Below, piece after piece: positions 12,883 to 52,364 of a stretch of 64,000 nucleotides of DNA (positions within the stretch are counted from its first letter, which is position 1; every line of letters begins with the position of its first letter). The DNA comes from Candidatus Latescibacterota bacterium. GTDB taxonomy: Bacteria; Latescibacterota; CBDEFO01. A program made the translations under genes and the position numbers. The stretch covers positions 3,991,540 through 4,055,539 of the forward strand of contig OZ252149.1 of NCBI GenBank assembly GCA_965248755.1, written 5' to 3'. The notes below the pieces were generated by a model. The model did no database searches and was not told the DNA's origin. It was given only the letters and a program-made list of their open reading frames with translations.

Positions 12883-13779
12883 ATGCGTGTAGCGCTTATT
12901 GGAGCCAACGGACAGTTGGGCTGTGATATTGCAAGGGCCTTGTCCGCGATTGATTCTATCGGGGACTTGAATGACAGGGTTCTGATCCCCCTGACCCATA
13001 CGGATATCGAGATTACAGACTTCAAGCTTATGACCGATGTGCTGTCCGAGCATAAGCCGGATATAGTTATCAACACCGCGGCTTATCACAGGGTAGATGA
13101 CTGTGAAACAAATCTGGAGAAGGCTTTCTCTGTGAACGCCCTCGGGGCAAGAAATCTTGCCCTCCACTGTAAAGAGAATAAAATTTGTCTGCTGCACATC
13201 AGCACAGATTACGTGTTTGATGGAAAGAGGACTTCACCCTATGTAGAGTCGGACCTTCCCAATCCGCTGAACGCTTACGGCGTGTCCAAACTTGCGGGGG
13301 AGCATTTCGTAAGGAGCATTACGGATGAGCATTTCATAGTCAGGACGTCTGGACTTTATGGAATTCATAAGTGCAGGGCAAAGGGCGGGAACTTCATAGA
13401 TACTATGCTGAGGCTATCCCAAGAGCAGGACGTGATAAGGGTGGTAGACGATGAGGTTTTGACCCCGACTTACACTTTAGATGTGGCTTATCAGATAAGG
13501 GAATTGTTAGAAACAGGCACTTATGGGACGTATCACATAACCAATCAGGGTGAATGCTCCTGGTACGAGTTTGCAAGTAAGATATTTGAGTTTATGGATA
13601 TCCAGGTGAATCTTGAAAGAATCACAGCAGATGAGTTCAGGAGTCCTGCCAGGCGTCCCTCCTATTCTGTGCTTGAGAATAAGGCGTTGAAGGACATAGG
13701 GATAGATAGAATGAGAAGTTGGGATGAGGCGTTGAATGCGTATTTGCAGGAAAGAAAAGAGCAACATCACGATGGATAA
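12883..13779 (+). CDS. rfbD: dTDP-4-dehydrorhamnose reductase
   Basis: GANGQLG, HISTDYVFDG, YGVSKLAGE, RRPSYSVL. Confidence 0.93.
   Translation: MRVALIGANGQLGCDIARALSAIDSIGDLNDRVLIPLTHTDIEITDFKLMTDVLSEHKPDIVINTAAYHRVDDCETNLEKAFSVNALGARNLALHCKENKICLLHISTDYVFDGKRTSPYVESDLPNPLNAYGVSKLAGEHFVRSITDEHFIVRTSGLYGIHKCRAKGGNFIDTMLRLSQEQDVIRVVDDEVLTPTYTLDVAYQIRELLETGTYGTYHITNQGECSWYEFASKIFEFMDIQVNLERITADEFRSPARRPSYSVLENKALKDIGIDRMRSWDEALNAYLQERKEQHHDG
12944..12964. repeat. 21-bp palindromic element, copy A (in frame in rfbD)
   Basis: CCGCGATTGATTCTATCGGGG. Confidence 0.8.
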
Positions 13780-14743
13780 GAAAGTTAGTATCTATATTCT
13801 CAACTACAACGGTAAAGATCTCTTAGCGGAATATCTTCCCTCTGTAGTAGAAGCTGTGAAGTACGATGGCAACGGGCACGAGATAGTGGTTGTAGATAAT
13901 CTCAGCACCGACGACAGTGTGGAATTCGTGGAGAGGAACTTCCCCCAGGTTAAAGTTAGAAAGATGGAGACGAATAGACTCCTCTTTTCTTATAATCAGG
14001 TTGTAAAAGAGTGCAAGAACGATTATGTAATCCTTCTAAACACAGACATAAAGATCGTAGAACCTGACTTTGTGCGCCCTCTTTTAAGACATTTCTCAGA
14101 TCCCGATGTCTTTGCAGTTGTGCCCAAGGTCTTGTCCGATAATCCTTCAGAGGAATACCTTTACAGGTGTCCTGGAGTCTTTTCACGGGGTCTTCTATGG
14201 ACAGGGAGATGGGAGAAGTTTCCGGGGAAGGGATTTACGCTCTTTGCACACGGAGGAGCAGCCGCCTACAACAGAAATAAGTTTCTGGAACTTGGTGGAT
14301 TCGATGATATCTACTGCCCTGGGTATGATGAAGACCAGGATATTTCCTATTTAGCGTGGATGAGAGGATGGAAGATTATCTTTGAACCTGAAAGCGTAGT
14401 ATTTCACAGGGGAGGCGCTACATTCAAAAGGACTTATAAAGATAATATGATGCAGCAGCATAAGGAGAAGGTGGCGATGGTCTTTGCTCTTAAGAATATA
14501 TCTGATCGTAGAATGCTCGCTGAATTCTTCTTTTGGTCTTTACTTAGATTTTTCAAATATCTTTCAAATTCTGATATGAGCAGGGTGAAAGCGTACAAAG
14601 ACGTTATAGCGATGACTTCTCGTATTTTAAGGTCCAGGAGAAAGATGAAAATGTCCAGGAGGATTTCGGACAGAAGCATACTTGAAATTATAAAACGAAA
14701 TCGTACACAATCTTCTAAGAGTACAAGAATAAGTAAAAGATGA
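13772..14743 (+). CDS. GT2 glycosyltransferase
   Basis: VSIYILNYNG, VVDNLSTDDS, LLNTD, LGGFD..EDQD; ATG 13772 overlaps the end of rfbD. Confidence 0.88.
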   Translation: MDKKVSIYILNYNGKDLLAEYLPSVVEAVKYDGNGHEIVVVDNLSTDDSVEFVERNFPQVKVRKMETNRLLFSYNQVVKECKNDYVILLNTDIKIVEPDFVRPLLRHFSDPDVFAVVPKVLSDNPSEEYLYRCPGVFSRGLLWTGRWEKFPGKGFTLFAHGGAAAYNRNKFLELGGFDDIYCPGYDEDQDISYLAWMRGWKIIFEPESVVFHRGGATFKRTYKDNMMQQHKEKVAMVFALKNISDRRMLAEFFFWSLLRFFKYLSNSDMSRVKAYKDVIAMTSRILRSRRKMKMSRRISDRSILEIIKRNRTQSSKSTRISKR

Positions 14744-15981
14744 AAATTCCTAATGATATTTCGATAGTCATATACCTCACAGGCGATTGGGAGACGTATC
14801 ATCGGCGTTCGATGATAGAGGCTTTTTCGCGCAATCTTTTGGGGATAGGCAGGATATTGAGCGTAAATCCCGTCATAAACCCGGCTACTGCTTTTTTGCG
14901 CGGCAACAGGAGGAGGGCTATACAGAGCATAACCAATGAAGGTATTCAGAAGATCAGTGAAAATCTATACGTATTGCATCCACATGCTCCCTTCTACACT
15001 CCATTGGACAGATTCTTGGATCTTTCGGCGAACGTCCGGACTATGCTAGCTAAGCAGATAAAGAAGGCGTTGGATGTCATAGGAGCATCACCGTCGGATA
15101 AGAGAATATCTTGGCTTTATAAGCCGCAGCAGGTTGATCATATCGGTTTGATAGATGAAACGCACGTCCTTTATGAGTGCTACGATGAATACTGTTATAC
15201 GAGTTTAGATTACAAGCCTAGACCATCTGTGATAGAACAAGAAAAACTTCTGCTCCGACAGGCGGATATTGTGTTCACCACATCGAGGGCACTACACGAT
15301 TCAAGGAGCAGATTGCATTCGAACGTGTATCTTGTTCCAAATGGTGTGGATTTTGAGCATTTCGCGTCAGCTCTGGATGTTGGTGATTCCCCTCCGCAGG
15401 ATATTCTAGACATCAAAAAACCGATTATCGGTTACATCGGAAGCTTAGGACACAGCATAGATGTTAATCTTTTGTTGGATATTATTGATAATGCGGACTG
15501 GTCATTTGTGCTTATCGGAGGCATAGTAGATTGTGTCCAAAAGGAATATTTGGACTGGATAGTACCCAGGCTCAGCCGTCTCAAAGAACATAGCAATTTC
15601 TATCATTTAGGATGGCAAGAGCGCAGTCAACTTCCCGCTTATCTTAAAGCTATAGATGTGGCTGTGATGCCCTACATCGTAAACGAGCACACCAAAAATT
15701 CCAATCATCTCAAACTGTGGGAATACCTTGCGACCGGAAGACCTGTGGTAGCGATGAACACCAGCAGTGAGGTCTGGGAGTCGAGAGAGGCTGTCCTTGT
15801 GGCTCAAAATAGGGATGAGTTTATCTCCCTTATAGATTATGCTCTCAAGAACGATATGAAGGAACGGATCGCCAAGGGTATTGAAATGGCAAGACAGAAT
15901 AGCTGGGATAGAATTACCAAGAATGCTGTTGATATAATACTGCAGTCTGTAAATTCAGTCGAAACTGTTCTAACAGCTTAA
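14740..15981 (+). CDS. GT4-like glycosyltransferase (TuaH-like)
   Basis: YECYDEY, ADIVFTTS, VPNGVDFEHF, IIGYIG, KLWEYLATGRPVV, NSW. Confidence 0.88.
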   Translation: MKIPNDISIVIYLTGDWETYHRRSMIEAFSRNLLGIGRILSVNPVINPATAFLRGNRRRAIQSITNEGIQKISENLYVLHPHAPFYTPLDRFLDLSANVRTMLAKQIKKALDVIGASPSDKRISWLYKPQQVDHIGLIDETHVLYECYDEYCYTSLDYKPRPSVIEQEKLLLRQADIVFTTSRALHDSRSRLHSNVYLVPNGVDFEHFASALDVGDSPPQDILDIKKPIIGYIGSLGHSIDVNLLLDIIDNADWSFVLIGGIVDCVQKEYLDWIVPRLSRLKEHSNFYHLGWQERSQLPAYLKAIDVAVMPYIVNEHTKNSNHLKLWEYLATGRPVVAMNTSSEVWESREAVLVAQNRDEFISLIDYALKNDMKERIAKGIEMARQNSWDRITKNAVDIILQSVNSVETVLTA

Positions 15982-16000
15982 AAAGTAGAGGTGTTAGCAG

Positions 16001-16816: not shown

Positions 16817-16850
16817 TCTGTACTGTGATATAATTGATAAAGGGATTTTT

Positions 16851-17696: not shown

Positions 17697-18256
17697 ACAT
17701 CGTATTGATCTTACCGGAGGCGCCTTTTAGTCCTTCGACTCAAAATGGCGGACAATATAAATGACCATTCCTGCCCTGTGCGTTCCTGATGTGGAGGAGT
17801 ATTTTGAGAAGTTTAACCGCGGCACAACACTCGATGCGGAACATATGCGGCTGTTCGGGACGACAAAGAGGAATCGCCCTGTACAGTTGAATTTGGATAG
17901 TACATTTTCCGTTTTGAAGTTTCTGTTTTGGGATCCTATTCTGCGGTTCGGCAGAATATTTCTATTTTTAAAGGCATATAAAGACGGCATCCCTGGACTG
18001 ATTTACGCTATCTTTGGCGCTTTCTACGAGTTTGTTGGGAGAGTTAAATATCTGGAAATGAGGATCAAAGAGAGCAAATGCCCAACAGATGAGAGTAGAC
18101 CATGTGAGGATCGGGTAGAGGATAAAAAGACATCGGCTTTTCCCCAAAATAGTTCTTCGATACACCCCGGTGTAAGTGTTCGCTCCCCCAAGAGGCGTCT
18201 TTTAGTCTTCTGGCACGGGATCGGGGATAATATAATGGCAATTCCTGCCCTGCGAG
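17353..18256 (+). repeat. Diverged tandem duplication (units ~17353-17782 and ~17783-18256)
   Basis: TTCCTGAT..GAGAAGTT..TGGGATCCT..TATCTGGAAATG recurs at offset 430; GAGGCGyCTTTTAGTC..ATTCCTGCCCTG recurs at offset ~475. Confidence 0.85.
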
Positions 18257-19212
18257 CGCTCAAGGAAAAATATCCTGACGATTCCCTAGGCCTTATGTAT
18301 CTCAAAAGGATAGACAAAGATGGCCTCTTCGGCGACAGTCCCTACATAGACGCCACATACACGTGCAGCGACGCCTGGAACGATTATCTCGACTACGATA
18401 CCGGAGTTACGGCTATTCTGGAGGAGGCGAATCGAGTCGCAGAAAAAGAGGGCTACGACGAGATTGTCCCTGTGACCCTTCGCAGTTGCTCTTTGGAAAA
18501 CCACAGGATATATCGCATAGCCCACGAACTCGGCGTCGAGCTTTCCACCCCCGATAGAAGCAATCGGGGGTGGGACACGGAACTCCCGATCCCCCAAGAG
18601 GAGGAAGAAAGAGCTGATGCCATCTTCAAGAGCTGGGGCATAAAAGAGGACGACTTCGTGGTCGCCATCCACAGAAGGGGAGCAAACGTCCATAAATACT
18701 GGGATGTGGAGGAGGCTTTAAGGTTCATAGACTTCATGAAGAAAAGGTATAACGCCAAGTTCATCGCCTTCGAGACTCACACCGATTTGGACAGAGAAGA
18801 AGCGCAGCGGTTGAAAGGGGAAAGTATCTTCAGCACGTATCATCTCTCCGACGTGAGTCTTAAGCTTTCAGCTGCTCTCATAGACAAATGCGACCTGTTT
18901 GTGGGCATAGACTCGGGTCCTATGTGGATAGCCACTACCACAAAGACACCTATAATTGCCCTTTTCACTATGACGTGGATGCAACAGACTGCGCCTATGA
19001 GAAAGGACAGCTACATAGTCTGCTCCGAAAAATCCAAAACAATATTGACAAAGAAGTTCGGAGAGGAACATAAAGACAGGATCGTCTATTCCGCAAAAGG
19101 CAGCACAAATATAGGTGCAGAGGACGTCATCAGATGCCTGGAGAAGCTTGAGATCTTCAATAATGTCCTTGAAGGATTCGACTACAACCGGGGGTTATCC
19201 CCGAGTTTGTAG
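17761..19212 (+). CDS. GT9 (heptosyltransferase-like) protein with a duplicated GT2 C-terminal segment at its N-terminus
   Basis: GIGDNIMAIPALRALK, KYW, CDLFVGIDSGPMWIA..PIIALF; the first ~100 aa match the C-terminus of 16851-17696. Confidence 0.8.
   Translation: MTIPALCVPDVEEYFEKFNRGTTLDAEHMRLFGTTKRNRPVQLNLDSTFSVLKFLFWDPILRFGRIFLFLKAYKDGIPGLIYAIFGAFYEFVGRVKYLEMRIKESKCPTDESRPCEDRVEDKKTSAFPQNSSSIHPGVSVRSPKRRLLVFWHGIGDNIMAIPALRALKEKYPDDSLGLMYLKRIDKDGLFGDSPYIDATYTCSDAWNDYLDYDTGVTAILEEANRVAEKEGYDEIVPVTLRSCSLENHRIYRIAHELGVELSTPDRSNRGWDTELPIPQEEEERADAIFKSWGIKEDDFVVAIHRRGANVHKYWDVEEALRFIDFMKKRYNAKFIAFETHTDLDREEAQRLKGESIFSTYHLSDVSLKLSAALIDKCDLFVGIDSGPMWIATTTKTPIIALFTMTWMQQTAPMRKDSYIVCSEKSKTILTKKFGEEHKDRIVYSAKGSTNIGAEDVIRCLEKLEIFNNVLEGFDYNRGLSPSL
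18549..18569. repeat. 21-bp palindromic element, copy B (in frame in GT9)
   Basis: CCCCGATAGAAGCAATCGGGG, with the stem extended by the flanks CCAC/GTGG. Confidence 0.85.
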
Positions 19213-19424
19213 ATAACGGTAAGACGGGAATACTTGTAGAGCCGAGGAATTCGCTTGAGTTTGCCAAAGCTGTGAAGGATTTGATAGAGAAGCCGGAGTT
19301 TGCCCAAAGACTCGGAGAAAATGGCAGACAGAGGGCAAGGCTCTTTACGTGGGATAAATCTGGAGAGAGGTTGGAAGAAGTGTATAAGGGTCTTTTGTTC
19401 TGTTTAGGAGAGAGTATAAAGTAA
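19177..19424 (+). pseudogene. C-terminal remnant of a GT4 glycosyltransferase
   Basis: A frame without a start codon reads IPEFVDNGKTGILVEPRNSLEFAKAVKDLIEKPEFAQRLGENGRQRARLFTWDK to TAA 19422. Confidence 0.8.
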
Positions 19425-19425
19425 T

Positions 19426-20364: not shown

Positions 20365-20390
20365 TAAAAGCAGTTTTAGGAGAGATATAA

Positions 20391-22377: not shown

Positions 22378-22447
22378 ATAGATATTCTAGCGTATTGTAA
22401 TAATTCAGAAAGGAATACAATTTTTAAAAAAACTTATAGGAGAGAAA

Positions 22448-25514: not shown

Positions 25515-26780
25515 TGTACTGCTTCCCAGGAAAGCGACACCAATTAAGCAACCTGGGGTAGTAGATAAAATTGTTTTCTCCACTCTTTTGGGGTCTTATA
25601 TCCCAGGGATGAATGAAGCCTGTTCTTGTTGTAATTATCGATCCACTGAGATATGATCTTCTCAGCCTGTTCAAAGGATTCAAACTTGTGAAGCCAAACA
25701 CACTCTTGCTTGAGGGTCCTGAAAAAACGCTCTACAACACCGTTCCAATCGGGTTTACCACTTGGTATGTATTCCTGACGAATTCCCCAATATTCGGTAC
25801 TGGCCAAATAGGCCCGAGCCAAAAAGATGGAACCATTGTCAGAGCGCAAAGTGAGACCCTGGGGGACAGCCTCCTTGGAAGTGTATCGAGAGATCACGGC
25901 CCGATCCAGGGCATCTGTGGCCTCCAGTGCCCTCCCTTTTCGACTAAAACGATACCCAGGAACCTCCCGGCTTCCGTTGTCCACCACCGCAATAAGAGGA
26001 CACCAACCATCTTTTCCACAGTAAATCTTTGTCAAGTCACTCGACCACAAACTGTCGGGACTATCCACCACAGAACGCTTCTGGGCAACCTGTGGCCCCT
26101 TTCTCCCGGGACGATTCCACAGCTTACACTGCCACCCCTTAAGCTTCATTATCCTATGAACCTTCTTGATGTTGACATATGCCCCTTCCTTGAAACGAAG
26201 ATGCGCCCAAACCCGCCTGTGACCAAATGCCTCTTCTTGGTCGAGTATCCCTCGAATACGAAAAGCAAGCTGTTCATCTATCACAGACTCTTCGACAGAA
26301 GAACTGACACCTCTATACCTAAGCCTACACAGAGTCGAACGATGCAAACCCAAAGCCAAAGCTACCACCTTCCGGGAATAGCCTCGACCCAAAAACCGCT
26401 CACTCAAGGCAACCGCTTCGTTTTTTTTAGACGGGCTACCTCCTCGAGTATCTCCAACTGGAGGGTTAAGTGCCCTACCTTACGCTCCAACCGGCTGACC
26501 TCCCGCTCCTTCGCATCCTTGCGACCACGCCGAGACTTCAGACTCTCCTGGCCTCCTTCCAAGAAACTATCACGCCAAGCATACGCCTGTGACTGGCTAA
26601 TTCCATTCTTCCAACACACCTCTGATACATTCGCTCCTTTCAAAACAGCCAACACCACCTCTACCTTACGGGTCGCCGTCCAGCGCTTACCATCTTTCAC
26701 TTCGGGGCTTGACACCTTGACCTCCTTTCTCAAACCCCAATTTGCAAAATATTTGTCGCCCTGTCAAGGGGAGCGGTATG
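25515..26780 (-). mobile_element. IS3-family element copy 1 (1266 bp, mosaic, no TSD); orfA 26733-26404, orfB 26407-25544
   Basis: Ends TGTACTGCTTCCC and GGGGAGCGGTATG; OrfB DDE motifs WSSDLT, RSDNGS, VERFFRTLKQE. Confidence 0.93.
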
Positions 26781-26928
26781 GCAAGACTCTCTTCTTCAAA
26801 GAAAAGTATCATTTATTTGTTATCAGGGATGACAATTTTGTATAGCATATATCCTATATTTTCTGGACAATTTTGGCCGTATCATTGGATGCCGTTTAAA
26901 TATTTTATTATCATACTCGCGTCGATGA
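26781..26928 (+). pseudogene. 148-bp internal fragment of a membrane-protein gene trapped between two IS copies
   Basis: Reads ARLSSSKKSIIYLLSGMTILYSIYPIFSGQFWPYHWMPFKYFIIILASM; matches neither neighbouring gene. Confidence 0.55.
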
Positions 26929-28194
26929 TGTACTGCTTCCCAGGAAAGCGACACCAATTAAGCAACCTGGGGTAGTAGATAAAATTGTTTTCTCCACTCT
27001 TTTGGGGTCTTATATCCCAGGGATGAATGAAGCCTGTTCTTGTTGTAATTATCGATCCACTGAGATATGATCTTCTCAGCCTGTTCAAAGGATTCAAACT
27101 TGTGAAGCCAAACACACTCTTGCTTGAGGGTCCTGAAAAAACGCTCTACAACACCGTTCCAATCGGGTTTACCACTTGGTATGTATTCCTGACGAATTCC
27201 CCAATATTCGGTACTGGCCAAATAGGCCCGAGCCAAAAAGATGGAACCATTGTCAGAGCGCAAAGTGAGACCCTGGGGGACAGCCTCCTTGGAAGTGTAT
27301 CGAGAGATCACGGCCCGATCCAGGGCATCTGTGGCCTCCAGTGCCCTCCCTTTTCGACTAAAACGATACCCAGGAACCTCCCGGCTTCCGTTGTCCACCA
27401 CCGCAATAAGAGGACACCAACCATCTTTTCCACAGTAAATCTTTGTCAAGTCACTCGACCACAAACTGTCGGGACTATCCACCACAGAACGCTTCTGGGC
27501 AACCTGTGGCCCCTTTCTCCCGGGACGATTCCACAGCTTACACTGCCACCCCTTAAGCTTCATTATCCTATGAACCTTCTTAACGTTGACACATTCCCCT
27601 TCCTTGAAACGAAGATGCGCCCAAACCCGCCTGTGACCAAATGCCTCTTCTTGGTCCAGTATCCCTCGAATACGAAAAGCAAGCTCCTCATCTATCACAG
27701 GCTCTTTAACAGAAGAACTGACACCTCTATCCCTAAACCTATACAGAGTCGAACGATGCAAACCCAAAGCCAAAGCTACCACCTTGCGGGAATAGCCTCG
27801 ACCCAAAAACCGCCCACTCAAGGCAACCGCTTCGTTTTTTTTAGACGGGCTACCTCTTCGAGTATCTCCAACTGGAGCGTCAACTGCCCTACCTTGCGCT
27901 CCAACCGGCTAACCTCTCGCTCCTTCGGATCCTTGCGACCACGCCGAGACTTCAGACTCTCCTGGCCCCCTTCTAAGAAACTATCACGCCAAGCATACGC
28001 CTGCGACTGGCTAATTCCATTCTTACGACACACCTCAGATAGATCTGCTCCTCTCAAAAGAGCCAACACAATCTCTCCCTTACGGGTCGCCGTCCAGCGC
28101 TTACCATCTTTCACTTCGGGGCTCGACACCTTGACCTCCCTTCTCAAACCCCAATTTGCGAAATATTTGTCGCTCTGTCAAGGGGAGCGGTATG
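26929..28194 (-). mobile_element. IS3-family element copy 2 (1266 bp, no TSD); orfA 28147-27818, orfB 27821-26958
   Basis: Same ends and ORFs as copies 3 and 5. Confidence 0.93.
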
Positions 28195-28225
28195 ATATAG
28201 CGTTCACTTGACAGCAGAAAGGTAG

Positions 28226-30492: not shown

Positions 30493-31731
30493 ATGGACAA
30501 AAGGAAAATTACTCTTATCTACTTTAGCGACTACTGGGACGAGCGATGGCGCCGCCGACAGCAGTTAGCTTACAGATTCGCTCAGCGGGAGGATGTACGA
30601 AAAGTTGTCTGTGTAGAATTCCCCTTACCGTTGACGTCGTTTGCTAAATACTTGGTCTACAAAGCTGACATTGAAGCGAGCGATCGTTGGGAGAGGGTCA
30701 CAGAATCAGGAATGGGACGTTCCATGCTTGACGGCAAGCTGGAAATACTAAGCCCTGTCTGTGCTTTTCCCTTTTTCAGGAGGACTCTTCTTTCGAGACT
30801 GGATAAGGCCTTTTTGAGGATATTGACAGAGGTATTGATAAGACGAGCGATAAGCGACATTGAGGACAAATCTTCGATCCTCTTCTGGGCAAGTCATCCT
30901 TTTGCCGCCGATTACATAGGGAAATTCAACGAAGCGATGATTTGCTACGACTGCACCGAGAAGTTTAGTGAGTTCGATTTTTGGGTGACCCTCAGAAAAG
31001 AAGTCGAAGAAAAGGATAGCCTGCTTACTCAGAGGGCCGATCAGATCTTTACACAGACCCAACCTCATCTTGTTGAGAAGAGGTCCGTTAATCCTAATGT
31101 ATTTTTGATCCCCAACGCCGTTGACTTCGACCTTTTCCAAAACAGCTTGGAGGCTCCAGAGCCATCAGACTTGAAGGGCATCAAGAGACCTATCTTGGGC
31201 TATGTGGGTAGCATCAACTCCCGTTTCGACTTTGAGCTTATTAGAAGGACAGCAAAAGTCTATAAAGATTGGTCGCTCGTCTTCATAGGCGATGCCAGTG
31301 AGAGTTCCGCAATAAAATCAGTAGAGGACTTAAAAAATATTTACTTTTTGGGTGAAAAGTCTTATAATATAGTACCGAGCTATCTGAAGGAGTTTAGTGT
31401 CTGTATGATGCCCTATATTAACCTTACTTGTTTGGGGAGCCCGACAAAGCTTTTCGATTATCTTGCCTCCGGGAAGCCTGTCGTCTCGACGGATATACCG
31501 GGCGTTCGGGACTTTTCGGATGTCGTATCCGTATCTAAAACCAAAGATGAGTTTACAAAGAATATAGGGATAGCCGCAGATGATAATGATCCGTTATCAG
31601 TCCTCCAGCGAAAAGAGCGCGCAAGAGAAAATTCGTGGGTTGTCAGGGAAAAACAGATATGGGACATTATTAAAAAGGGGTTATCTTCAGCGCTTCACAA
31701 GGAGATGACAGGGTGTCAAGTTACAGCGTAG
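30493..31731 (+). CDS. GT4-like glycosyltransferase (TuaH-like)
   Basis: RRQQLA, YDCTE, IPNAVDF, LGYVG, PTKLFDYLASGKPVV, ENSW; ATG 30493 preferred because the upstream extension is REP sequence. Confidence 0.87.
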   Translation: MDKRKITLIYFSDYWDERWRRRQQLAYRFAQREDVRKVVCVEFPLPLTSFAKYLVYKADIEASDRWERVTESGMGRSMLDGKLEILSPVCAFPFFRRTLLSRLDKAFLRILTEVLIRRAISDIEDKSSILFWASHPFAADYIGKFNEAMICYDCTEKFSEFDFWVTLRKEVEEKDSLLTQRADQIFTQTQPHLVEKRSVNPNVFLIPNAVDFDLFQNSLEAPEPSDLKGIKRPILGYVGSINSRFDFELIRRTAKVYKDWSLVFIGDASESSAIKSVEDLKNIYFLGEKSYNIVPSYLKEFSVCMMPYINLTCLGSPTKLFDYLASGKPVVSTDIPGVRDFSDVVSVSKTKDEFTKNIGIAADDNDPLSVLQRKERARENSWVVREKQIWDIIKKGLSSALHKEMTGCQVTA

Positions 31732-34135
31732 TTACATACCGCTCCCCTTGACAGAGCGACAAATATTTCGCAAATTGGGGTTTGAGAAGGGAGGTCAAGG
31801 TGTCGAGCCCCGAAGTGAAAGATGGTAAGCGCTGGACGGCGACCCGTAAGGGAGAGATTGTGTTGGCTCTTTTGAGAGGAGCAGATCTATCTGAGGTGTG
31901 TCGTAAGAATGGAATTAGCCAGTCGCAGGCGTATGCTTGGCGTGATAGTTTCTTAGAAGGGGGCCAGGAGAGTCTGAAGTCTCGGCGTGGTCGCAAGGAT
32001 CCGAAGGAGCGAGAGGTTAGCCGGTTGGAGCGCAAGGTAGGGCAGTTGACGCTCCAGTTGGAGATACTCGAAGAGGTAGCCCGTCTAAAAAAAACGAAGC
32101 GGTTGCCTTGAGTGGGCGGTTTTTGGGTCGAGGCTATTCCCGCAAGGTGGTAGCTTTGGCTTTGGGTTTGCATCGTTCGACTCTGTATAGGTTTAGGGAT
32201 AGAGGTGTCAGTTCTTCTGTTAAAGAGCCTGTGATAGATGAGGAGCTTGCTTTTCGTATTCGAGGGATACTGGACCAAGAAGAGGCATTTGGTCACAGGC
32301 GGGTTTGGGCGCATCTTCGTTTCAAGGAAGGGGAATGTGTCAACGTTAAGAAGGTTCATAGGATAATGAAGCTTAAGGGGTGGCAGTGTAAGCTGTGGAA
32401 TCGTCCCGGGAGAAAGGGGCCACAGGTTGCCCAGAAGCGTTCTGTGGTGGATAGTCCCGACAGTTTGTGGTCGAGTGACTTGACAAAGATTTACTGTGGA
32501 AAAGATGGTTGGTGTCCTCTTATTGCGGTGGTGGACAACGGAAGCCGGGAGGTTCCTGGGTATCGTTTTAGTCGAAAAGGGAGGGCACTGGAGGCCACAG
32601 ATGCCCTGGATCGGGCCGTGATCTCTCGATACACTTCCAAGGAGGCTGTCCCCCAGGGTCTCACTTTGCGCTCTGACAATGGTTCCATCTTTTTGGCTCG
32701 GGCCTATTTGGCCAGTACCGAATATTGGGGAATTCGTCAGGAATACATACCAAGTGGTAAACCCGATTGGAACGGTGTTGTAGAGCGTTTTTTCAGGACC
32801 CTCAAGCAAGAGTGTGTTTGGCTTCACAAGTTTGAATCCTTTGAACAGGCTGAGAAGATCATATCTCAGTGGATCGATAATTACAACAAGAACAGGCTTC
32901 ATTCATCCCTGGGATATAAGACCCCAAAAGAGTGGAGAAAACAATTTTATCTACTACCCCAGGTTGCTTAATTGGTGTCGCTTTCCTGGGAAGCAGTACA
33001 GTTATGTTTGTCAGCAGTCTATTATCTCTGACGACAGGTGGCATGATATATCATGTTGAGGTGTATAAATTCCTGAAACGGAGTGGAGTATCGGTCAACG
33101 TAATCAATTTAGAGGAAATGCCGATCCTCATTAAAAGATGTCCTCTATTTTTGAACTTGATTCTTACCAATTACTGGTTTATCCAGAAACTCCTGTCGCT
33201 AAAACTGGATCGAAGAAGAAAGGTCATCCTATTTGAAGATTACCACTTTCATCCGAGATTATTTCTATTCAATCTGTTTGTAAAGGCTATTTTCAGAAGA
33301 GTAAGTGTCGTAACTATAGTGAATCTATCTTTATTCTATCATTCTGCTTTGCGATTCAGCGTGGCTAGGAAGATAGATGAATTTATTATCAAGGTATTCC
33401 TCAACCAGTTAAATAAGATATTAGTCGTCAGCGATAGCACGGAAACCGAAGTGCTGGTCACAGGGGATTAAACCGTCTAAGGTTGAGAGGATCTACAACC
33501 AGATCCACAACCATTACGACGATATGTCCTCAGGAAACATCAGTGAAAAGACAGAATGTGCACAGTACGGGAAGACGAACCTTCTCTTTGTGGGAAGATG
33601 CCATGTTGATAAGGGAATCGAGTATCTGTTGGAGGCAGTCGCTCTGCTCGGAGATAATGTTGTCTTGAATATTGTGGGTGCCACCGATCACGATCCGAAT
33701 TACTACAGGAAACTAACTGAAATCATACAAAAACGCAATATAAAGGAGAAGGTCTTTTTCCACGGATATGTAGATGATAAAAATAAGCTGAAGCAATTTC
33801 ACGAGAGAGCTGATATCTTTGTCTTACCGTCAATTATCGAAGGATTCGGTATTGTTCTTTTGGAAGCGATGTCCGCTGGTCTTCCCATAGTCGCTACAAA
33901 TGTGGGCGCTATTCCAGAGTTGGTAAAAGACGGGTACAACGGTATCCTTGTGCCTCCAAGGGATATGCCCTCTCTGGCGAAAGCTATAGATTCCCTGATA
34001 AGATCTCCTTCTATGAGAAGGAAATACAGTATCAATGGGTTCAAATACTACCAAAGCGTTCGGGATATTCATTCCTGGGATAACCACTTAAGGACAATAC
34101 GCGACATTTTCAACCGATTGGCTGATGCGGTTTAA
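31713..34135 (+). pseudogene. GT4 glycosyltransferase disrupted by IS3 copy 3 at codon 7-8 and a +1 frameshift in GGGG 33463-33466
   Basis: GTG after AGGAG; VSSYSVV|IS|MFVSSLLSLTTGG..; later LLFVGR..KG, EGFGIVLLEAMSAGLPIVAT. Confidence 0.8.
31735..33000 (+). mobile_element. IS3-family element copy 3 (1266 bp), 4-bp TSD GTTA; orfA 31782-32111, orfB 32108-32971
   Basis: GTTA|CATACCGCTCCCC...GGGAAGCAGTACA|GTTA; A8 run before the orfA stop, with orfB in the -1 frame. Confidence 0.95.
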
Positions 34136-43072: not shown

Positions 43073-44360
43073 CATACCGCTCCCCTTGACAGGGCGACAA
43101 ATATTTTGCAAATTGGGGTTTGAGAAAGGAGGTCAAGGTGTCAAGCCCCGAAGTGAAAGATGGTAAGCGCTGGACGGCGACCCGTAAGGTAGAGGTGGTG
43201 TTGGCTGTTTTGAAAGGAGCGAATGTATCAGAGGTGTGTTGGAAGAATGGAATTAGCCAGTCACAGGCGTATGCTTGGCGTGATAGTTTCTTGGAAGGAG
43301 GCCAGGAGAGTCTGAAGTCTCGGCGTGGTCGCAAGGATGCGAAGGAGCGGGAGGTCAGCCGGTTGGAGCGTAAGGTAGGGCACTTAACCCTCCAGTTGGA
43401 GATACTCGAGGAGGTAGCCCGTCTAAAAAAAACGAAGCGGTTGCCTTGAGTGGGCGGTTTTTGGGTCGAGGCTATTCCCGGAAGGTGGTAGCTTTGGCTT
43501 TGGGTTTGCATCGTTCGACTCTGTGTAGGCTTAGGTATAGAGGTGTCAGTTCTTCTGTCGAAGAGTCTGTGATAGATGAACAGCTTGCTTTTCGTATTCG
43601 AGGGATACTCGACCAAGAAGAGGCATTTGGTCACAGGCGGGTTTGGGCGCATCTTCGTTTCAAGGAAGGGGCATATGTCAACATCAAGAAGGTTCATAGG
43701 ATAATGAAGCTTAAGGGGTGGCAGTGTAAGCTGTGGAATCCCCGATAGAATCAATCGGGGACCCCGGGAGAAAGGGGCCACAGGTTGCCCAGAAGCGTTC
43801 TGTGATGGATCGTCCTGACAGTCTCTGGTCGGCTGACTTGACCAAGATCTATTGTGGGGAAGATGGTTGGTGTCCTCTTATTGCGGTGGTGGACAACGGG
43901 AGTCGGGAGGTTCCCCGGGTATCGTTTTAGTCGAAAAGGGAGGGCACTGGAGGCCACAGATGCCCTGGATCGGGCCGTGATCTCTCGATACACTTCCTAA
44001 GGAGGCTGTCCCCCAGGGTCTCACTTTGCGCTCTGACAACGGCTCCATCTTTTTGTCTCGGACCTATTTGGCAAGTACCGAATATTGGGACATTCGTCAA
44101 GAATATATTCCGAGCGGAAAGGCCGATTGGAACGGGGTCATAGAACGTTTTTTCAGGACCCTCAAGCAGGAGTGTGTGTGGCTTCACAATTTCAAGTCCT
44201 TTGAACAAGCTGAGAAGATCATATCTCAGTGGATCGATAATTACAACAAGAACTGGCTTCATTCATCTCTGGGATACAAGACCCCGGAAGAGTGGAGAAA
44301 ACAATTTTATCTGCTACCCCAAGTTGCTTAATTGATGTCGCTTTTCTGGGGGGCAGTACA
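43073..44360 (+). mobile_element. IS3-family element copy 4 (1288 bp, diverged variant, orfB inactivated, no TSD)
   Basis: Same termini; net +20 nt at the palindrome insertion (43740) and two +1 insertions near 43915 and 43998. Confidence 0.9.
43740..43760. repeat. 21-bp palindromic element, copy C (inside IS3 orfB)
   Basis: CCCCGATAGAATCAATCGGGG; absent at the same site in the other four IS copies. Confidence 0.9.
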
Positions 44361-44639: not shown

Positions 44640-45905
44640 TGTACTGCTTCCCAGGAAAGCGACACCAATTAAGCAACCTGGGGTAGTAGATAAAATTGTT
44701 TTCTCCACTCTTTTGGGGTCTTATATCCCAGGGATGAATGAAGCCTGTTCTTGTTGTAATTATCGATCCACTGAGATATGATCTTCTCAGCCTGTTCAAA
44801 GGATTCAAACTTGTGAAGCCAAACACACTCTTGCTTGAGGGTCCTGAAAAAACGCTCTACAACACCGTTCCAATCGGGTTTACCACTTGGTATGTATTCC
44901 TGACGAATTCCCCAATATTCGGTACTGGCCAAATAGGCCCGAGCCAAAAAGATGGAACCATTGTCAGAGCGCAAAGTGAGACCCTGGGGGACAGCCTCCT
45001 TGGAAGTGTATCGAGAGATCACGGCCCGATCCAGGGCATCTGTGGCCTCCAGTGCCCTCCCTTTTCGACTAAAACGATACCCAGGAACCTCCCGGCTTCC
45101 GTTGTCCACCACCGCAATAAGAGGACACCAACCATCTTTTCCACAGTAAATCTTTGTCAAGTCACTCGACCACAAACTGTCGGGACTATCCACCACAGAA
45201 CGCTTCTGGGCAACCTGTGGCCCCTTTCTCCCGGGACGATTCCACAGCTTACACTGCCACCCCTTAAGCTTCATTATCCTATGAACCTTCTTAACGTTGA
45301 CACATTCCCCTTCCTTGAAACGAAGATGCGCCCAAACCCGCCTGTGACCAAATGCCTCTTCTTGGTCCAGTATCCCTCGAATACGAAAAGCAAGCTCCTC
45401 ATCTATCACAGGCTCTTTAACAGAAGAACTGACACCTCTATCCCTAAACCTATACAGAGTCGAACGATGCAAACCCAAAGCCAAAGCTACCACCTTGCGG
45501 GAATAGCCTCGACCCAAAAACCGCCCACTCAAGGCAACCGCTTCGTTTTTTTTAGACGGGCTACCTCTTCGAGTATCTCCAACTGGAGCGTCAACTGCCC
45601 TACCTTGCGCTCCAACCGGCTAACCTCTCGCTCCTTCGGATCCTTGCGACCACGCCGAGACTTCAGACTCTCCTGGCCCCCTTCTAAGAAACTATCACGC
45701 CAAGCATACGCCTGCGACTGGCTAATTCCATTCTTACGACACACCTCAGATAGATCTGCTCCTCTCAAAAGAGCCAACACAATCTCTCCCTTACGGGTCG
45801 CCGTCCAGCGCTTACCATCTTTCACTTCGGGGCTCGACACCTTGACCTCCCTTCTCAAACCCCAATTTGCGAAATATTTGTCGCTCTGTCAAGGGGAGCG
45901 GTATG
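44640..45905 (-). mobile_element. IS3-family element copy 5 (1266 bp), 4-bp TSD AGGA; orfA 45858-45529, orfB 45532-44669
   Basis: AGGA|TGTACTGC...GAGCGGTATG|AGGA. Confidence 0.95.
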
Positions 45906-45917
45906 AGGACTACATAA

Positions 45918-46928
45918 ATGGACAAAAGCCGTGTGATCATAAGGTCTGTCAAAGATAGAAAGCTGGACGATGTCGTCGAGGAGATTTTGGAGTTTTGTAA
46001 TTGGAGGGATATTGTTTCAAAGGACTCCAAAGTAGTGGTCAAACCGAATTTATGCGCGGCCGACAAGAAAGTAATGCCCGCCGCGAACGTCTCTCCTGAG
46101 CTGGTAGCTTCAGTTTGTAAGATTATAAGTACTAAGACTAAACATATATTCATCGGGGAATCGGACGGAATGCGGCACAAGGCTGAGGAGGCTCTGGAAA
46201 ATTCTGGAATGTATAAGATAGCTGATGAATTGGGTATAAAGACTATAGACTTTTCCAAAGATGAGTTAGTTCCGGTCGACGTTGGGATTCTGGAAGGTTG
46301 GAAGATGTCCAAGACTCTCCTTGAGGCGGATGTGGTGGTGACTTTGCCCACTTTGAAGACCCATGCAAGTTTCGTGTTCACAGGGGCTATGAAGAATCAG
46401 TGGGGCTGTATACCCAGATACGACCGCTGTCTTTTGCACCACCATTTCCACAGGGTAGTCAACGATATAAACCGGCTGTTCAAGCCGCAAATAGCGGTGA
46501 TGGACGGGATTATGGCTATGGAAGGCAGGGGGCCTGCCATGGGGAATCCCGTGAGGATGGATCTGCTTTTGGGATCCAACGATGTTGTAGCCATAGATGC
46601 TACGGCTATGAGGCTGATAGGTTTGGATCCGTACAGCGCCCGTTATATCGCTTTGGCCCAAGAGGAAGGTCTCGGTCAAGTGGCTGACGATACGATAGTC
46701 GTAGATGGTGACTTTGAACGTTTCAAGACTGTATTTAAACCTGGGGAGTACGATTGGGCCTTGAAGACCATGACACTCGTAAATAGGTCATATTTTCTCA
46801 CGCACTATCTTGTTATGGTTGACACGATCTTTTATCCTATAAGGAAAGTAGTAATTATGATGCGCAAGATAGTAGCGGCGGTCAAGAACCTCCGGACGTT
46901 GAGACCGTCCTGGGGAAGCAGGACATAG
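45918..46928 (+). CDS. DUF362 family protein
   Basis: VVVKPNL, IGESDG, LPTLKTH, TGAMKNQWG, DGIMAMEGRGP, DVVAID. Confidence 0.85.
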   Translation: MDKSRVIIRSVKDRKLDDVVEEILEFCNWRDIVSKDSKVVVKPNLCAADKKVMPAANVSPELVASVCKIISTKTKHIFIGESDGMRHKAEEALENSGMYKIADELGIKTIDFSKDELVPVDVGILEGWKMSKTLLEADVVVTLPTLKTHASFVFTGAMKNQWGCIPRYDRCLLHHHFHRVVNDINRLFKPQIAVMDGIMAMEGRGPAMGNPVRMDLLLGSNDVVAIDATAMRLIGLDPYSARYIALAQEEGLGQVADDTIVVDGDFERFKTVFKPGEYDWALKTMTLVNRSYFLTHYLVMVDTIFYPIRKVVIMMRKIVAAVKNLRTLRPSWGSRT

Positions 46929-46958
46929 ATTCTTGCTACGACGGTGTAGGAGAGTGTC

Positions 46959-49150: not shown

Positions 49151-49165
49151 AAGGAGATCAAATAG

Positions 49166-49190
49166 CAGTAGACAGTAGTCAGTAGACAGG
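49166..49190 (+). repeat. Short CAGTAGA heptamer tandem repeat
   Basis: CAGTAGA CAGTAGT CAGTAGA CAGG, intergenic. Confidence 0.65.
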
Positions 49191-49206
49191 GAAAGGCAAG
49201 GATAAG

Positions 49207-49842: not shown

Positions 49843-50434
49843 AGACGGCGTTATCAACAGTGTTATCTACAACAGAGATGAGGGAATTAAAGATTCTCCC
49901 GTAAACCCCGATCAGTTTGAAGTACTACCGGGCGTGGGAGAGGCGGTAAGGCTTATAAATCAGATGGAATTTCTGGCCATACTGGTTTCAAACCAGCCGG
50001 GGGTCGCCAAAGGTAAGTTCACACACGAAATCCTAGATGCGATGACGGCTAAGATGGAAGTCGTGCTTGTAAAATCTGATGCTAAGTTAGATGGCATTTA
50101 CTACTGTCTGCATCATCCCAAAGCTCTTTTGGACGAATACCGTGTAGTTTGCGAGTGCCGCAAGCCGAAGCCGGGATTACTTATAAATGGAGCAAAGGAT
50201 TTCGGTGTAGATCTGGAAAGATCTTATATGATCGGGGATCGCATAGTGGATATTCAGGCGGGACAAGATGCTGGTTGTAAGACGCTGTGGATCGGTAAGT
50301 TAGATTCCCAAATGTCCAGATTGATGGAACAGGAGTGCCTAACTCCTGATTTTATAGTTCCCGAGCTGCTCGAAGGTGTAAGATTGATTCAACGAAAGGA
50401 GTTGGAGGATGGAAATATTCCTGGATACAGCTGA
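49817..50434 (+). CDS. Sugar bisphosphate phosphatase (GmhB-like HAD-IIIA)
   Basis: AVFLDRDGVIN, SNQPG, YYCLHHP, CECRKPKPG, MIGD..DI.AG. Confidence 0.9.
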   Translation: MKRAVFLDRDGVINSVIYNRDEGIKDSPVNPDQFEVLPGVGEAVRLINQMEFLAILVSNQPGVAKGKFTHEILDAMTAKMEVVLVKSDAKLDGIYYCLHHPKALLDEYRVVCECRKPKPGLLINGAKDFGVDLERSYMIGDRIVDIQAGQDAGCKTLWIGKLDSQMSRLMEQECLTPDFIVPELLEGVRLIQRKELEDGNIPGYS

Positions 50435-51101
50435 TCTTGATCAGATAAAGGCTTGGCTGGGATACAGAGCCATAGATGGGGTGACGACTAACCCTTCGAT
50501 TATGCTTAAGAAAGGCATCTTTGACCTTGAAGCCGGGGCAAAGGAGATAGCCCAGGTTATGGGTCAACTCCCTGTCTCAGTGGAGGTCACGAGTAATGAT
50601 CCTGAGGAGATGCTGGATCAGGCGAGGGAGATTTCCCAGTGGGCGCCAAATATCGTAGTGAAGATCCCGATCATAAACGAAAATGGGAGGCCCTGCCTGG
50701 ACGTTATCGGGACACTGGAGGATGAGGGGATAAGAGTCAATGTTACGGCCTGTTTGTCCTACGGTCAGGCTATATTGGCGGCAAAGGTCGGAGCTACATA
50801 TGTGAGTATCTTCGCAGGGCGGGTATCCGACGAGGGTCACGACGCCTCCAAGCTCATCAGGATGGTGAGAGACTGGATAGACGACTGGGGATATAAAGCA
50901 AAGATCATAGTCGGGAGCATAAGGGAGGTCATCAACATTCAGGACGCCGCTGCTTCTGGAACTCACGTGATAACTGTACCACCTGAGTTTATGCATAAGT
51001 TAGTAGATCATAAGTTCTCGAGGGCCACGGTGCAGGCCTTTGTCGAGGATGGTCAGAAGGCTCTTGCTATGATGATTGAGCAGATGGTCTCGAAACAGTA
51101 G
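50409..51101 (+). CDS. Small (TalC/FSA-type) transaldolase
   Basis: IFLDTA, GVTTNPS, SVEV, VVKIP (Schiff-base Lys), NVT, YVSIFAGR, GSIR. Confidence 0.9.
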   Translation: MEIFLDTADLDQIKAWLGYRAIDGVTTNPSIMLKKGIFDLEAGAKEIAQVMGQLPVSVEVTSNDPEEMLDQAREISQWAPNIVVKIPIINENGRPCLDVIGTLEDEGIRVNVTACLSYGQAILAAKVGATYVSIFAGRVSDEGHDASKLIRMVRDWIDDWGYKAKIIVGSIREVINIQDAAASGTHVITVPPEFMHKLVDHKFSRATVQAFVEDGQKALAMMIEQMVSKQ

Positions 51102-51172
51102 TAGACAGTAGACAGCAGGCAGTAGACAGGGCACCCCACCTATCCCTGTATGCTGTCTACTGTTTGCTGTCT
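51096..51172. repeat. CAGTAGA-type heptamer tract followed by an inverted tract (hairpin)
   Basis: GTAGACAGTAGACAGCAGGCAGTAGACAGGG ... TGCTGTCTACTGTTTGCTGTCT. Confidence 0.65.
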
Positions 51173-51197
51173 CCCTATTTAGTGGAGTGTCGAAGCG

Positions 51198-52364
51198 TTG
51201 GAATTGGTGTTCCTTCTTTCCCTTGCGACTGTCGTCTACGTATATCTTGGTTATCCTTTCGCACTGGTGGTTATAAGAGCCGTAAAGGGGAAGAAGCCCC
51301 CGATTGAATCTATCGGGGGTAAAAAGCGTGATGTTACTCCCTCGGTATCTTTAGTTATCTCTGCCCATAATGAACAAGAGGTTATTGGGAAGAAGATTGA
51401 AAATAGCCTCCTTTTAGACTATCCACGGGATAAATTGGAGATTGTGGTGGCTTCGGACTGTTCCTCTGATAGAACGAATGAGATCGTCCGAAGCTATTCG
51501 GATCAAGGGATAATTCTGAATATTATTCCTCAAAGAGGGGGCAAAACTGTAGCCCAAAACGAGACTGTTCCTCTGACCAAGGGCGAAATCGTTATCTTCT
51601 CAGACGCCGATTCGATCTTTGAGAGGGATGTCATCTTAAGGCTCGCAACAAATTTCAGCGATCCAGAGGTAGGTGCCGTCTCGGGTCGGCTCTTCTATAC
51701 CAATTCAAACGAATCGGCGATGAGTTCAGGAGAGAGCCTCTACTGGAAGTACGAAAATTTGCTGAGGCAGTTGGAAAGCGATATAGGATCGTGCATCATG
51801 GCAAATGCAGCGATCTTTGCTATACGGCGTGAGTTTTACAGGCATCTCGACCCGGGGTTTTCAGAGGATTTTGTGCTCCCTCTCTGGATATCTGCCGATG
51901 GTGCAAAGTCCCTGTTCGATCCGGAGGCCGTGTGTTTTGAAAGGACGGCTGTTACCCCAAAGGACGAGTCGTCCATGAGGATCAGGACCGCTCATGGGGA
52001 TTCCTACGGTCTTTTCAAGTTGAAGTGCATGTTGTCACCATTTCGACCCCTTTTGGCTTTTCAATCTATTTCCCATAAACTCCTGCGCTGGGCTGTGGGA
52101 TTCTTTCTGATCTTGGCTTTCATCTCGAACGCCTTACTTCTTCACTCTTCCCCTTTGCTTCTTTATAAAATTACCTTTCTTTTGCAGTCGGCATTCTACC
52201 TGGCGGCTCTTGCCGGACTGATTCTGAACAGAAAGGGCAAAAACATGCGCCTGTTCTACCTGCCCTATTATTTCTGCGTGGTCAATATAGCCGTGTTGAT
52301 AGGCTTGATGAAAAGCATTCTGGGAGTACCGTACGTGACTATATGGGAACAGAGATTAAGGTAG
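51198..52364 (+). CDS. Membrane-anchored GT2 glycosyltransferase
   Basis: YVYLGYP TM, SAHNE, SDCSSDRT, FSDAD, YWKYE, EDF, SHKLLRW. Confidence 0.9.
   Translation: MELVFLLSLATVVYVYLGYPFALVVIRAVKGKKPPIESIGGKKRDVTPSVSLVISAHNEQEVIGKKIENSLLLDYPRDKLEIVVASDCSSDRTNEIVRSYSDQGIILNIIPQRGGKTVAQNETVPLTKGEIVIFSDADSIFERDVILRLATNFSDPEVGAVSGRLFYTNSNESAMSSGESLYWKYENLLRQLESDIGSCIMANAAIFAIRREFYRHLDPGFSEDFVLPLWISADGAKSLFDPEAVCFERTAVTPKDESSMRIRTAHGDSYGLFKLKCMLSPFRPLLAFQSISHKLLRWAVGFFLILAFISNALLLHSSPLLLYKITFLLQSAFYLAALAGLILNRKGKNMRLFYLPYYFCVVNIAVLIGLMKSILGVPYVTIWEQRLR
51298..51318. repeat. 21-bp palindromic element, copy D (in frame in GT2)
   Basis: CCCCGATTGAATCTATCGGGG. Confidence 0.85.

Follow-up and report, generated by a model that had tools for sequence, protein, structure and literature searches.

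The stretch of DNA analysed here, hereafter the window, comprises 64,000 nucleotides (nt) from the genome of a Candidatus Latescibacterota bacterium, bases 3991540-4055539 of a closed single contig of 4,540,735 base pairs (bp; 48.9% G+C, 98% completeness; genome G000, below the host genome), and carries four copies of a short palindrome, CCCCGAT-N7-ATCGGGG. With up to one mismatch allowed, these four are the only matches in the window, where 0.01 would be expected from shuffled sequence, and each lies within an open reading frame (ORF). The host ORFs belong to the Pfam families RmlD_sub_bind (rfbD), Glyco_transf_9 (glycosyltransferase family 9, GT9), an rve-type orfB of an IS3-family insertion sequence (IS) and Glycos_transf_2 (GT2) (Table 1). 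An earlier note, drawn from the letters of the window alone, had placed four copies at these positions, the first with one stem mismatch and all inside ORFs, and had read them as a minimal non-autonomous mobile element; placement and mobility are both upheld, and the first interpretation as a whole is partly supported. The palindrome probably forms the core of a mobile element that is very small and non-autonomous and spreads by copy and paste; the unit of this element is a hairpin of 23 bp.

The copies in the three host genes interrupt sequences that are continuous in relatives. In rfbD, the core (CCGCGAT TGATTCT ATCGGGG, with the single stem mismatch) is part of a 27-nt block, composed of T, core, A and a second CTTG, which is missing from the ortholog in a congeneric genome (G001, below the congener; about 85-98% identical to the host genome across orthologous DNA, with 2.0 of its 4.6 Mb sampled for comparison) and which amounts to 9 codons. 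The block is absent in all 39 aligned homologs, of which 35 have no residue at all in the loop extension and four have unrelated insertions of their own within the same loop. Equally, the homologs 3sc6 and 1vl0 from the Protein Data Bank show a 7-position gap at the insert in the HMMER alignment, and in the AlphaFold2 model of RmlD (mean predicted local distance difference test score, pLDDT, of 92.6) residues 24-30, situated between helix 11-24 and strand 33-37, form the sole segment with a pLDDT<50. Copy B, with the loop AGAAGCA, encodes the peptide PDRSNRG, which is missing, as a clean 7-residue gap, from the only substantial GT9 homolog (55% identity across 253 residues). Copy D, with the loop TGAATCT, encodes PIESIGG, faces a gap of 6-7 residues in 13 of 13 aligned GT2 homologs (41-59% identity) and occupies the same site in the congener. 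Of the 7-residue gaps that the earlier note had foreseen in orthologs, those in GT9 and, at 6-7 residues, GT2 were found, and the one in rfbD was replaced by a difference of 9 codons; the mapping onto a structure that it had proposed led, for rfbD, to just the poorly predicted loop.

The fourth copy resides in a mobile element and comes with its own control. In copy C, the CGT of the empty site is swapped for the core plus AC, which gives a net gain of 20 nt and an in-frame TAG, while the four sister IS copies in the window, held up earlier as an internal control, indeed preserve the empty site. Genome-wide, this site is empty in 56 IS copies (AATCGTCCC) and filled in 15 (AAT+21+ACCCC). The filled IS had been regarded as a single dead copy; the in-frame TAG agrees with this description, but its singularity does not, because the 15 filled copies indicate that the palindrome-broken orfB form has itself multiplied. 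The five IS3-family copies in the window (25544-26845, 26958-28211, 31721-32971, 43073-44360 and 44669-45958) lie within a polysaccharide/glycosyltransferase gene cluster, and in the congener sample solely the palindrome-broken form was seen, in five copies.

Table 1. Copies of the palindrome and empty target sites in the window (window coordinates)
Feature	Position	Strand	Details
Copy A, rfbD	12943..12969	+	ORF 12883-13779, RmlD-type dTDP-4-dehydrorhamnose reductase; core 12944-12964
Copy B, GT9 (heptosyltransferase-family)	18548..18570	-	ORF 17761-19212; core 18549-18569; C...G closing pair
Copy C, IS3-family orfB	43739..43761	-	core 43740-43760; IS ~43073-44360
Copy D, GT2	51297..51319	+	ORF 51198-52364; core 51298-51318; C...G closing pair
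Empty target site, sister IS3-family copy	26103..26120	-	GTGGAATCGTCCCGGGAG
Empty target site, sister IS3-family copy	27517..27534	-	GTGGAATCGTCCCGGGAG
Empty target site, sister IS3-family copy	32395..32412	+	GTGGAATCGTCCCGGGAG
Empty target site, sister IS3-family copy	45228..45245	-	GTGGAATCGTCCCGGGAG

The genome-wide scan that the earlier note had called for reveals a large family. The host genome has 237 exact copies, a number that rises to 437 when one stem mismatch is tolerated, as compared to 0 and 2 in the reversed, non-complemented genome, and the congener has 268 exact copies. The consensus core of the 437 copies reads CCCCGAT TGAATCT ATCGGGG. Loop positions 1 and 7 are T..T (A..A on the other strand) in 410 copies, with 27 deviating, and because of this asymmetry the element has an orientation and is no perfect palindrome. 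Loop positions 2-3 and 5-6 (GA and TC) are 90-96% conserved around a free centre (A 0.59, T 0.21, G 0.12, C 0.09), whereby the loop can be written as T-GANTC-T. When copies are oriented, a pyrimidine (Y) precedes the core at position -1 in 94% and a purine (R) follows it at position +21 in 94%, which extends to the genome the pyrimidine and purine flanks first noticed in the window. These flanking bases are complementary in 349 of the 437 copies (TA 221, CG 128) and mismatched as TG in 22 and CA in 16. Among the 398 loop-bearing members, stem position 5 covaries (G-C 343, A-T 20, G-T 12, A-C 8) and 188 members are closed by T-A and 118 by C-G, as against 43 in the two mismatched classes that are commonest (T-G 25, C-A 18). 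The unit is a 23-bp hairpin with the 8-bp stem Y-CCCCGAT / ATCGGGG-R, closed by a T-A or C-G pair. As DNA, the three perfect-stem window copies fold with -7.5 to -8 kcal/mol and copy A with -4.9 kcal/mol, and as RNA the hairpin folds with about -14 kcal/mol. Subfamilies can be distinguished, one with the compensatory stem change CCCCAAT...ATTGGGG (10 perfect-stem copies in the host genome) and one with the arm variant CCCCGAA / TTCGGGG and a GGCCTGY / RCAGGCC extension (about 30 copies there). That the T..T asymmetry is fixed in hundreds of members points to a master from which they were copied and not to convergence, since it would not result if a symmetric binding site had been selected independently.

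The element is mobile, because 42 of 245 comparable sites (about 1 in 6) differ between the host genome and the congener and because copies occur nested in copies, in the IS3-family element and in a repeat of about 260 bp. Ambiguous repeats (26 congener and 71 host-genome queries) and partial alignments (33 and 46, respectively) had been removed before counting. From 193 congener copies queried, 131 were placed uniquely, with 103 sites filled and 28 not filled in the host genome; from the 437 host-genome copies, 114 were placeable in the congener sample, with 100 common to both genomes and 14 absent in the congener. Close strains of the host genome were not found in the metagenome sample. Nested copies number 34 (24 in the host genome and 10 in the congener sample), and in the recurrent arrangement the outer copy is split into CCCCGA and TTCAATCGGGG around Y+21+R, with the outer TAGA (TCTA on the other strand) being replaced. 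The ~260-bp repeat in the host genome is empty in 16 cases (GCTTCGTCGC) and filled in 11 (GCTT+21+ACCGC). This repeat, located at about 103932, 633133, 824387, 1445285, 3243662, 3779505 and other positions of the host genome, contains GAGATTGCTTCGTCGCTTTGCTCCTCGCAATGAC and translates into an EIASSLRSSQ-like peptide; translated repeats akin to it dominate the 'ORFs' beside the element in the metagenome contigs of other organisms.

Such differences between orthologous sites speak to the proposal that the palindrome is a non-mobile functional motif, such as a protein-binding site, a hairpin that acts as a terminator or stabilises mRNA, or a sequence of the uptake type, which selection or biased conversion has enriched by acting on point mutations. 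Strict sequence conservation in distant genomes, a stable hairpin and a mild bias towards the 3'-ends of genes (153 of the 252 copies between tandem genes are closer to the end of the upstream gene) would all be in line with such a role. However, whereas DNA uptake words and words like the highly iterated palindrome (HIP) arise by substitution, orthologous sites here differ by indels of 15-30 nt, copies sit within other copies and within IS elements, and copies interrupt conserved proteins where all homologs show gaps. No match to a known RNA family was obtained from Rfam in the window at the gathering score, nor any meaningful one around one intergenic copy that was inspected. A function of resident copies would be compatible with the data but leaves the origin of the copies unexplained, and the proposal as such carries a very slight probability.

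The junctions of the polymorphic sites, anchored by exact flanking matches at 39 of the 42 sites with 3 unanchorable, indicate how a copy may be accommodated. Net gains recorded for the 42 sites cluster at +19 (twelve), +20 (nine) and +27 (nine), with +21 seen twice and gains of 15, 17, 18, 22, 24, 26 and 30 once each. In the typical +19/+20 event the unit stands in place of 3-4 target bases: ACGA is replaced by T+21+A (twice), ACGC by C+21+G, TCGA by T+21+A and ACC by T+21+A (twice), while CGT is replaced by 21+AC at both the IS and the ~260-bp repeat and TAGA is lost in nested copies. The +27 class is mixed; several members represent the subfamily with a six-base extension (core + ACAGGC = GGCCTGY + CCCCGAA...), as a clean insertion or as a local 27-nt duplication. 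Furthermore, at 3 of the 39 anchored sites a 3-4-nt duplication surrounds Y+21+R, namely CTTG in rfbD, TCAA at 2601094 and TTG at 1180454 of the host genome. The earlier statement that no target sequence is duplicated consequently holds for most sites, where 3-4 nt are lost, and fails at these three. The gain modes near 23-4 and 23+4 would fit a 23-bp unit joined at a break with a stagger of about 4 nt, the overhangs of which are trimmed or filled. Many empty sites have 3-7 nt in common with the arms of the element, which is compatible with an enzyme searching for arm-like sequence as well as with a templated process guided by microhomology.

The junctions equally bear on the possibility of a solo-TIR MITE (a transposable element of the miniature inverted-repeat kind), derived from a DDE transposon, in which two terminal inverted repeats of about 10 bp would stand head to head and be moved by a parent IS. 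The arms CCCCGATTGA and CCCCGATAGA resemble a pair of slightly different ends and the 3-4-nt duplications around Y+21+R at three polymorphic sites would be expected of such an element, but most insertions lose target bases instead of duplicating them. Orphan half-sites, searched for as the termini of a parent IS, amount to 35 left and 55 right ones, nearly all of which belong to an outer copy split by nesting, and no pair of them brackets a transposase-sized segment; a MITE origin is accordingly rated as highly improbable. Three sequences ending in the right half-site (TCTATCGGGG) were observed at 1897081, 1900621 and 1904316 of the host genome, each preceded by another hairpin (GACGCCTACAGAGTAGGCGCTGA-like), and their spacing of about 3.6 kb suggests a tandemly repeated gene block.

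With respect to genes, a codon-usage ORF picker made 3,465 calls in the host genome, which cover 82% of it and leave 18% as non-coding. The 437 copies divide into 326 between genes, 18 that straddle the end of a gene and 93 within an ORF call; the element is mainly intergenic, because 326 copies are found outside genes although non-coding DNA is such a minor fraction. Many of the 93 sit close to the beginning of the longest ORF that can be drawn, inside its first 40 codons, and may precede the true start; 37 copies pass stricter genic criteria, which ask for an ORF score of 30 or more and a distance of no fewer than 40 codons to the first start and 15 to the stop. Between genes, copies roughly follow the length available, with 252 observed to 236 expected in tandem, 46 to 42 in convergent and 38 to 58 in divergent intervals. 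The copies are singletons, with 3 of 436 successive spacings at 60 nt or less and 23 at 200 nt or less. Runs of CAGTAGA-type heptamers (GTAGACAGTAGACAG...) flank short intergenic hairpins, in the window at 49165-49195 and 51098-51178 and at many places of both genomes; this heptamer is a dispersed repeat, with 40-odd short matches in the congener, and the palindrome is often inserted into its runs, between GTAG and TAGA.

Copies inside genes occupy only the four stop-free frames. The commonest peptide encoded is [S/P]-P-I-[D/E]-S-I-G-[D/G], and the same phase yields it in both orientations. Among eight long host proteins scanned against Pfam, seven had clear families: in SecA, the copy lies between the scaffold domain and the SEC-C motif (a C-terminal linker), and further hosts include a pump of the AcrB family as well as a hydantoinase-methyltransferase fusion and an ABC transporter, both with the copy in a linker (interdomain in the fusion). 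The in-gene copies examined lie in tolerant loops or interdomain linkers. At the five polymorphic sites that fall in confident genes, the gains amount to +18, +21, +24, +27 and +27, all multiples of three, as against 13 of 37 at the other sites (by window-based net lengths). Because the unit is 23 bp long and mostly adds 19, 20 or 27 nt, selection among variable outcomes, and not the length of the element, preserves the frame, and the copies seen within genes are those of 3n gain that survived an insertion blind to frame. In-frame occurrence in real genes, at tolerant loops or linkers, had been recognised in the earlier note and is confirmed; its view that insertion into genes as 7 extra codons is characteristic of the element, and that a 3n length permits persistence, is not supported, given the intergenic majority and the size of the unit.

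The distribution of the element is narrow within the phylum and scattered beyond it. Among 168 genomes of the same phylum, 52 of them of high quality, the host genome and the congener are the only two with the element. In other lineages, exact copies number 19, 5, 6, 3 and 6 in five metagenome-assembled genomes (MAGs; G031-G035, respectively) labelled Deltaproteobacteria or Thermodesulfobacteriota, which are small (1.5-2.4 Mb) and low in G+C. At least 120 metagenome contigs carry the element, most of them at 39-48% G+C, and 11 copies among the matches listed are on contigs of 60-68% G+C. Copies in other lineages show the same asymmetry that orients the element and follow the same closing-pair rule; the 160 metagenome copies among the matches listed comprise 98 with a C-G closing pair, 55 with T-A and 7 with another. 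The identity of the 21-nt sequence across phyla, asymmetry included, implies horizontal spread together with a strong constraint from a recognising factor. Candidates for joint transfer, matches of at least 62% identity between the loci of other carriers and the host genome judged by length and position, look like conserved housekeeping genes (GroEL/GroES-, EF-Tu- and ATP-synthase-like). A sister family that forms a perfect palindrome with a TGAWTCA loop (CCCCGATTGA-W-TCAATCGGGG) is present in 28, 20 and 12 copies in three MAGs labelled as PVC group or uncultured (G036, G037 and G038; loci L009, L068, L060 and others), its copies often having longer complementary flanks.

What moves the element has been approached from several directions. 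An ordinary family of repetitive extragenic palindromes (REPs), or of the REPINs built from them, mobilised by a REP-associated tyrosine transposase (RAYT) of the IS200/IS605 type with a Y1 HUH domain, matches in size, G+C-rich stem, hundreds of copies and mainly extragenic location; intragenic REPs are documented (PMC3733652), and the low-copy carriers G031, G032, G033 and G035 have 3-13 Y1_Tnp genes each. However, no Y1_Tnp (PF01797) match was detected in the host genome or the congener, although both possess lineage-specific copies and control genomes were positive, and the element flanks none of four Y1_Tnp loci sampled in other carriers (4 of 30 matches). Moreover, the foot of the stem bears neither a GTAG nor a CGTC tag, the flank profile being only R-Y ... 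R-Y, and the copies are singletons; GTAGA flanks (28 of 874 flank instances) are due to nested copies and heptamer repeats and are not tags. Mobilisation by a RAYT is, on these grounds, very improbable. The earlier note was right that the mobilising enzyme is not encoded in the window, and the absence of a RAYT extends to the whole genome; its suggestion of a RAYT/IS200-type TnpA gene flanked by the palindrome was not borne out at any of these loci.

Other candidate associations were rejected as well. For a link to reverse transcriptases (RTs), the only element in either RT locus of the host genome rides on an adjacent IS copy. One of the loci (3730098-3733640, L198) encodes a retron St85-family RT with an STM3845-family effector and adjoins an IS3 copy; the other (3677013-3680405, L199) encodes a 507-residue DRT-like RT and adjoins a proS fragment. 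No CRISPR array with a related repeat was found, and GANTC words, at 0.99-1.06 of expectation, show no footprint of a GANTC-specific restriction-modification system. Among the words of the host genome, there is a strong deficit of CTAG (0.25 of the Markov expectation), with CGATCG at 0.56 and CGCG at 0.72.

A non-autonomous 23-bp hairpin element that is copied and pasted would integrate these observations. New copies arise at unrelated sites, including the inside of existing copies, the IS3-family element and the other repeat; an insertion usually swaps 3-4 target bases, often ACGA, TCGA, TAGA or ACC, for a unit of 23-24 nt and gains 19 or 20 nt, and less often gains 27 nt, through the 27-nt subfamily or through the unit plus a 3-4-nt duplication. 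Copies accumulate in non-coding DNA, with selection presumably removing most insertions from genes because most outcomes would shift the reading frame. A factor acting in trans may recognise the hairpin or the duplex palindrome and join it at a short staggered break; this would be something other than a HUH enzyme of the RAYT/IS200 type, and could be a dedicated enzyme or the general repair or replication machinery of the host.

Several points weigh against the copy-and-paste element. No mobilising protein was found in the host genome, the congener or the examined loci of other carriers; clustering of the gene neighbours at 130 other-carrier loci recovered only tetratricopeptide repeat (TPR) and histidine-kinase families and translated repeats, without a recurrent nuclease or transposase. 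No pair of half-sites brackets a gene or a segment the size of a transposase, and viral contigs gave 0 matches, so that a phage origin was set aside. The rule at the junctions is not uniform, with both loss and duplication of 3-4 nt, and some +27 events resemble a local tandem duplication of a 27-nt unit. Hitch-hiking on larger repeats adds copies, chiefly 15 on the IS and 13 on the ~260-bp repeat, with 401 distinct flank contexts remaining among the 437. Most of the 42 polymorphic sites have no direction, gain or loss, polarised by an outgroup; the direction can be relied on only where a copy is nested, sits in the IS or the ~260-bp family, or lies in a host gene that has distant homologs. 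Since the ORF picker is crude, the numbers of genic and intergenic copies are approximations, and alignment at 85-95% identity brings noise into the junction calls.

Some of these points feed the alternative that general host replication or repair makes the copies with no dedicated enzyme, be it by template switching onto a further copy, microhomology-mediated templated insertion at breaks or ectopic gene conversion that starts from short stretches matching the arms. Many empty sites match the element in part (ACGAT/ATCGT resembles the CCGAT/ATCGG arm, and TAGA the loop edge), net lengths range from 15 to 30, the genomes and loci surveyed yielded no candidate enzyme, and occurrence in several phyla would be easier to understand if only universal machinery was needed. 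Yet the inserted unit has sharp and constant ends (Y+21+R), gains fall into the discrete modes of +19/+20 and +27 and not into a smear, and the microhomologies are merely 2-5 nt. Equally, 166 of the 168 genomes of the same phylum are devoid of a copy, and the strict conservation of GA.TC in the loop across phyla suggests recognition by a specific protein. Copying by host machinery without an enzyme of its own is, on balance, unlikely. Somewhat more credible, and still tentative, is an extended form of the copy-and-paste reading, according to which the 23-bp hairpin might be among the smallest mobile DNAs known, moved by neither a HUH/RAYT nor a classical DDE mechanism, swapping about 4 bp of target at a staggered break, having crossed phyla together with a compact enzyme or by relying on universal repair or replication proteins, and generating loop insertions of 5-9 residues.

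Among known systems, the element behaves like REPs and the small dispersed repeats (SDRs) of cyanobacteria, and fails the defining tests of REP-RAYT systems (tag, RAYT, doublets) and of MITEs, having neither the terminal repeats of a parent IS nor a fixed target-site duplication. The SDRs described by Elhai and colleagues in 2008 are reportedly 21-27 nt long, with hairpin potential, and absent from some orthologous sites; they are also said to be nested in one another and in other repeats and to be associated with tandem heptamer repeats. With these SDRs the element shares dispersal, the 21-27-nt size class, polymorphism between related genomes and nesting in itself and in other repeats, and many of its copies stand in CAGTAGA-type heptamer runs. 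Sequence and host phyla differ, the element being spread across phyla and distinguished by a covarying closing pair, a GANTC-centred loop and the replacement of target bases; the likeness is one of functional class. In yeast mitochondria, GC clusters are short mobile hairpin repeats of an organellar genome. The mobile G+C clusters and hairpin elements reported from the mitochondria of fungi and sponges (PMC2800124) are likewise short hairpins that spread, sometimes in coding sequence, without an encoded enzyme; by description they are comparable, but they are organellar, longer and unrelated in sequence to the element.

The SDRs of the Nostocaceae are portrayed in the literature as very short dispersed repeats too small to code and proposed to be mobile (PMC5861425, PMC2884548, PMC3116915), and one of these reports records no SDR outside the Nostocaceae (PMC5861425). 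REPs with GTAG or CGTC tags are described as G+C-rich palindromes of 20-40 bp, mostly extragenic and in some cases in frame within ORFs (Di Nocera et al. 2013, PMC3733652), and REPINs and RAYT transposases are treated in PMC3116915. The element is similar to REPs and REPINs as a short palindrome in hundreds of copies, mostly extragenic and partly in frame within ORFs, and differs from them by the lack of a GTAG/CGTC tag, of a RAYT gene in the two element-rich genomes and of inverted doublets or clusters (bacterial interspersed mosaic elements, BIMEs). Rickettsia palindromic elements (RPEs) are presented as palindromic selfish DNA residing in frame within functional protein genes (Ogata et al. 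2000, cited in PMC3733652, PMC3184786), at lengths of about 105-146 bp according to a table of the latter (PMC3184786). Both RPEs and the element can be in frame in genes, whereas the element measures 23 bp and its intragenic copies are a minority. The consensus 21-mer did not occur, in either orientation, in the literature searched.

The finding bears on the question of how the smallest palindromic repeats move without a RAYT, a question that equally concerns RAYT-less REPs, CGTC-type REPs and the SDRs of cyanobacteria. It provides a tractable system, consisting of a closed genome with about 440 copies and a congener that differs at about one site in six, with internal controls of known ancestral state in the 71 IS copies, the 27-copy repeat family and the nested copies, and with a distinctive junction signature in which target bases are replaced at a net gain of 19 or 20 nt. 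Carriers in other phyla permit phylogenetic profiling for the missing enzyme. For annotation, caution is advised, as such repeats yield spurious peptide similarities of the SPI[DE]SIGD type. For the proteins of the host, insertion is blind to the reading frame, and those copies that survive because they leave it undisturbed lengthen essential proteins such as SecA, AcrB-type pumps and RmlD by short loops.

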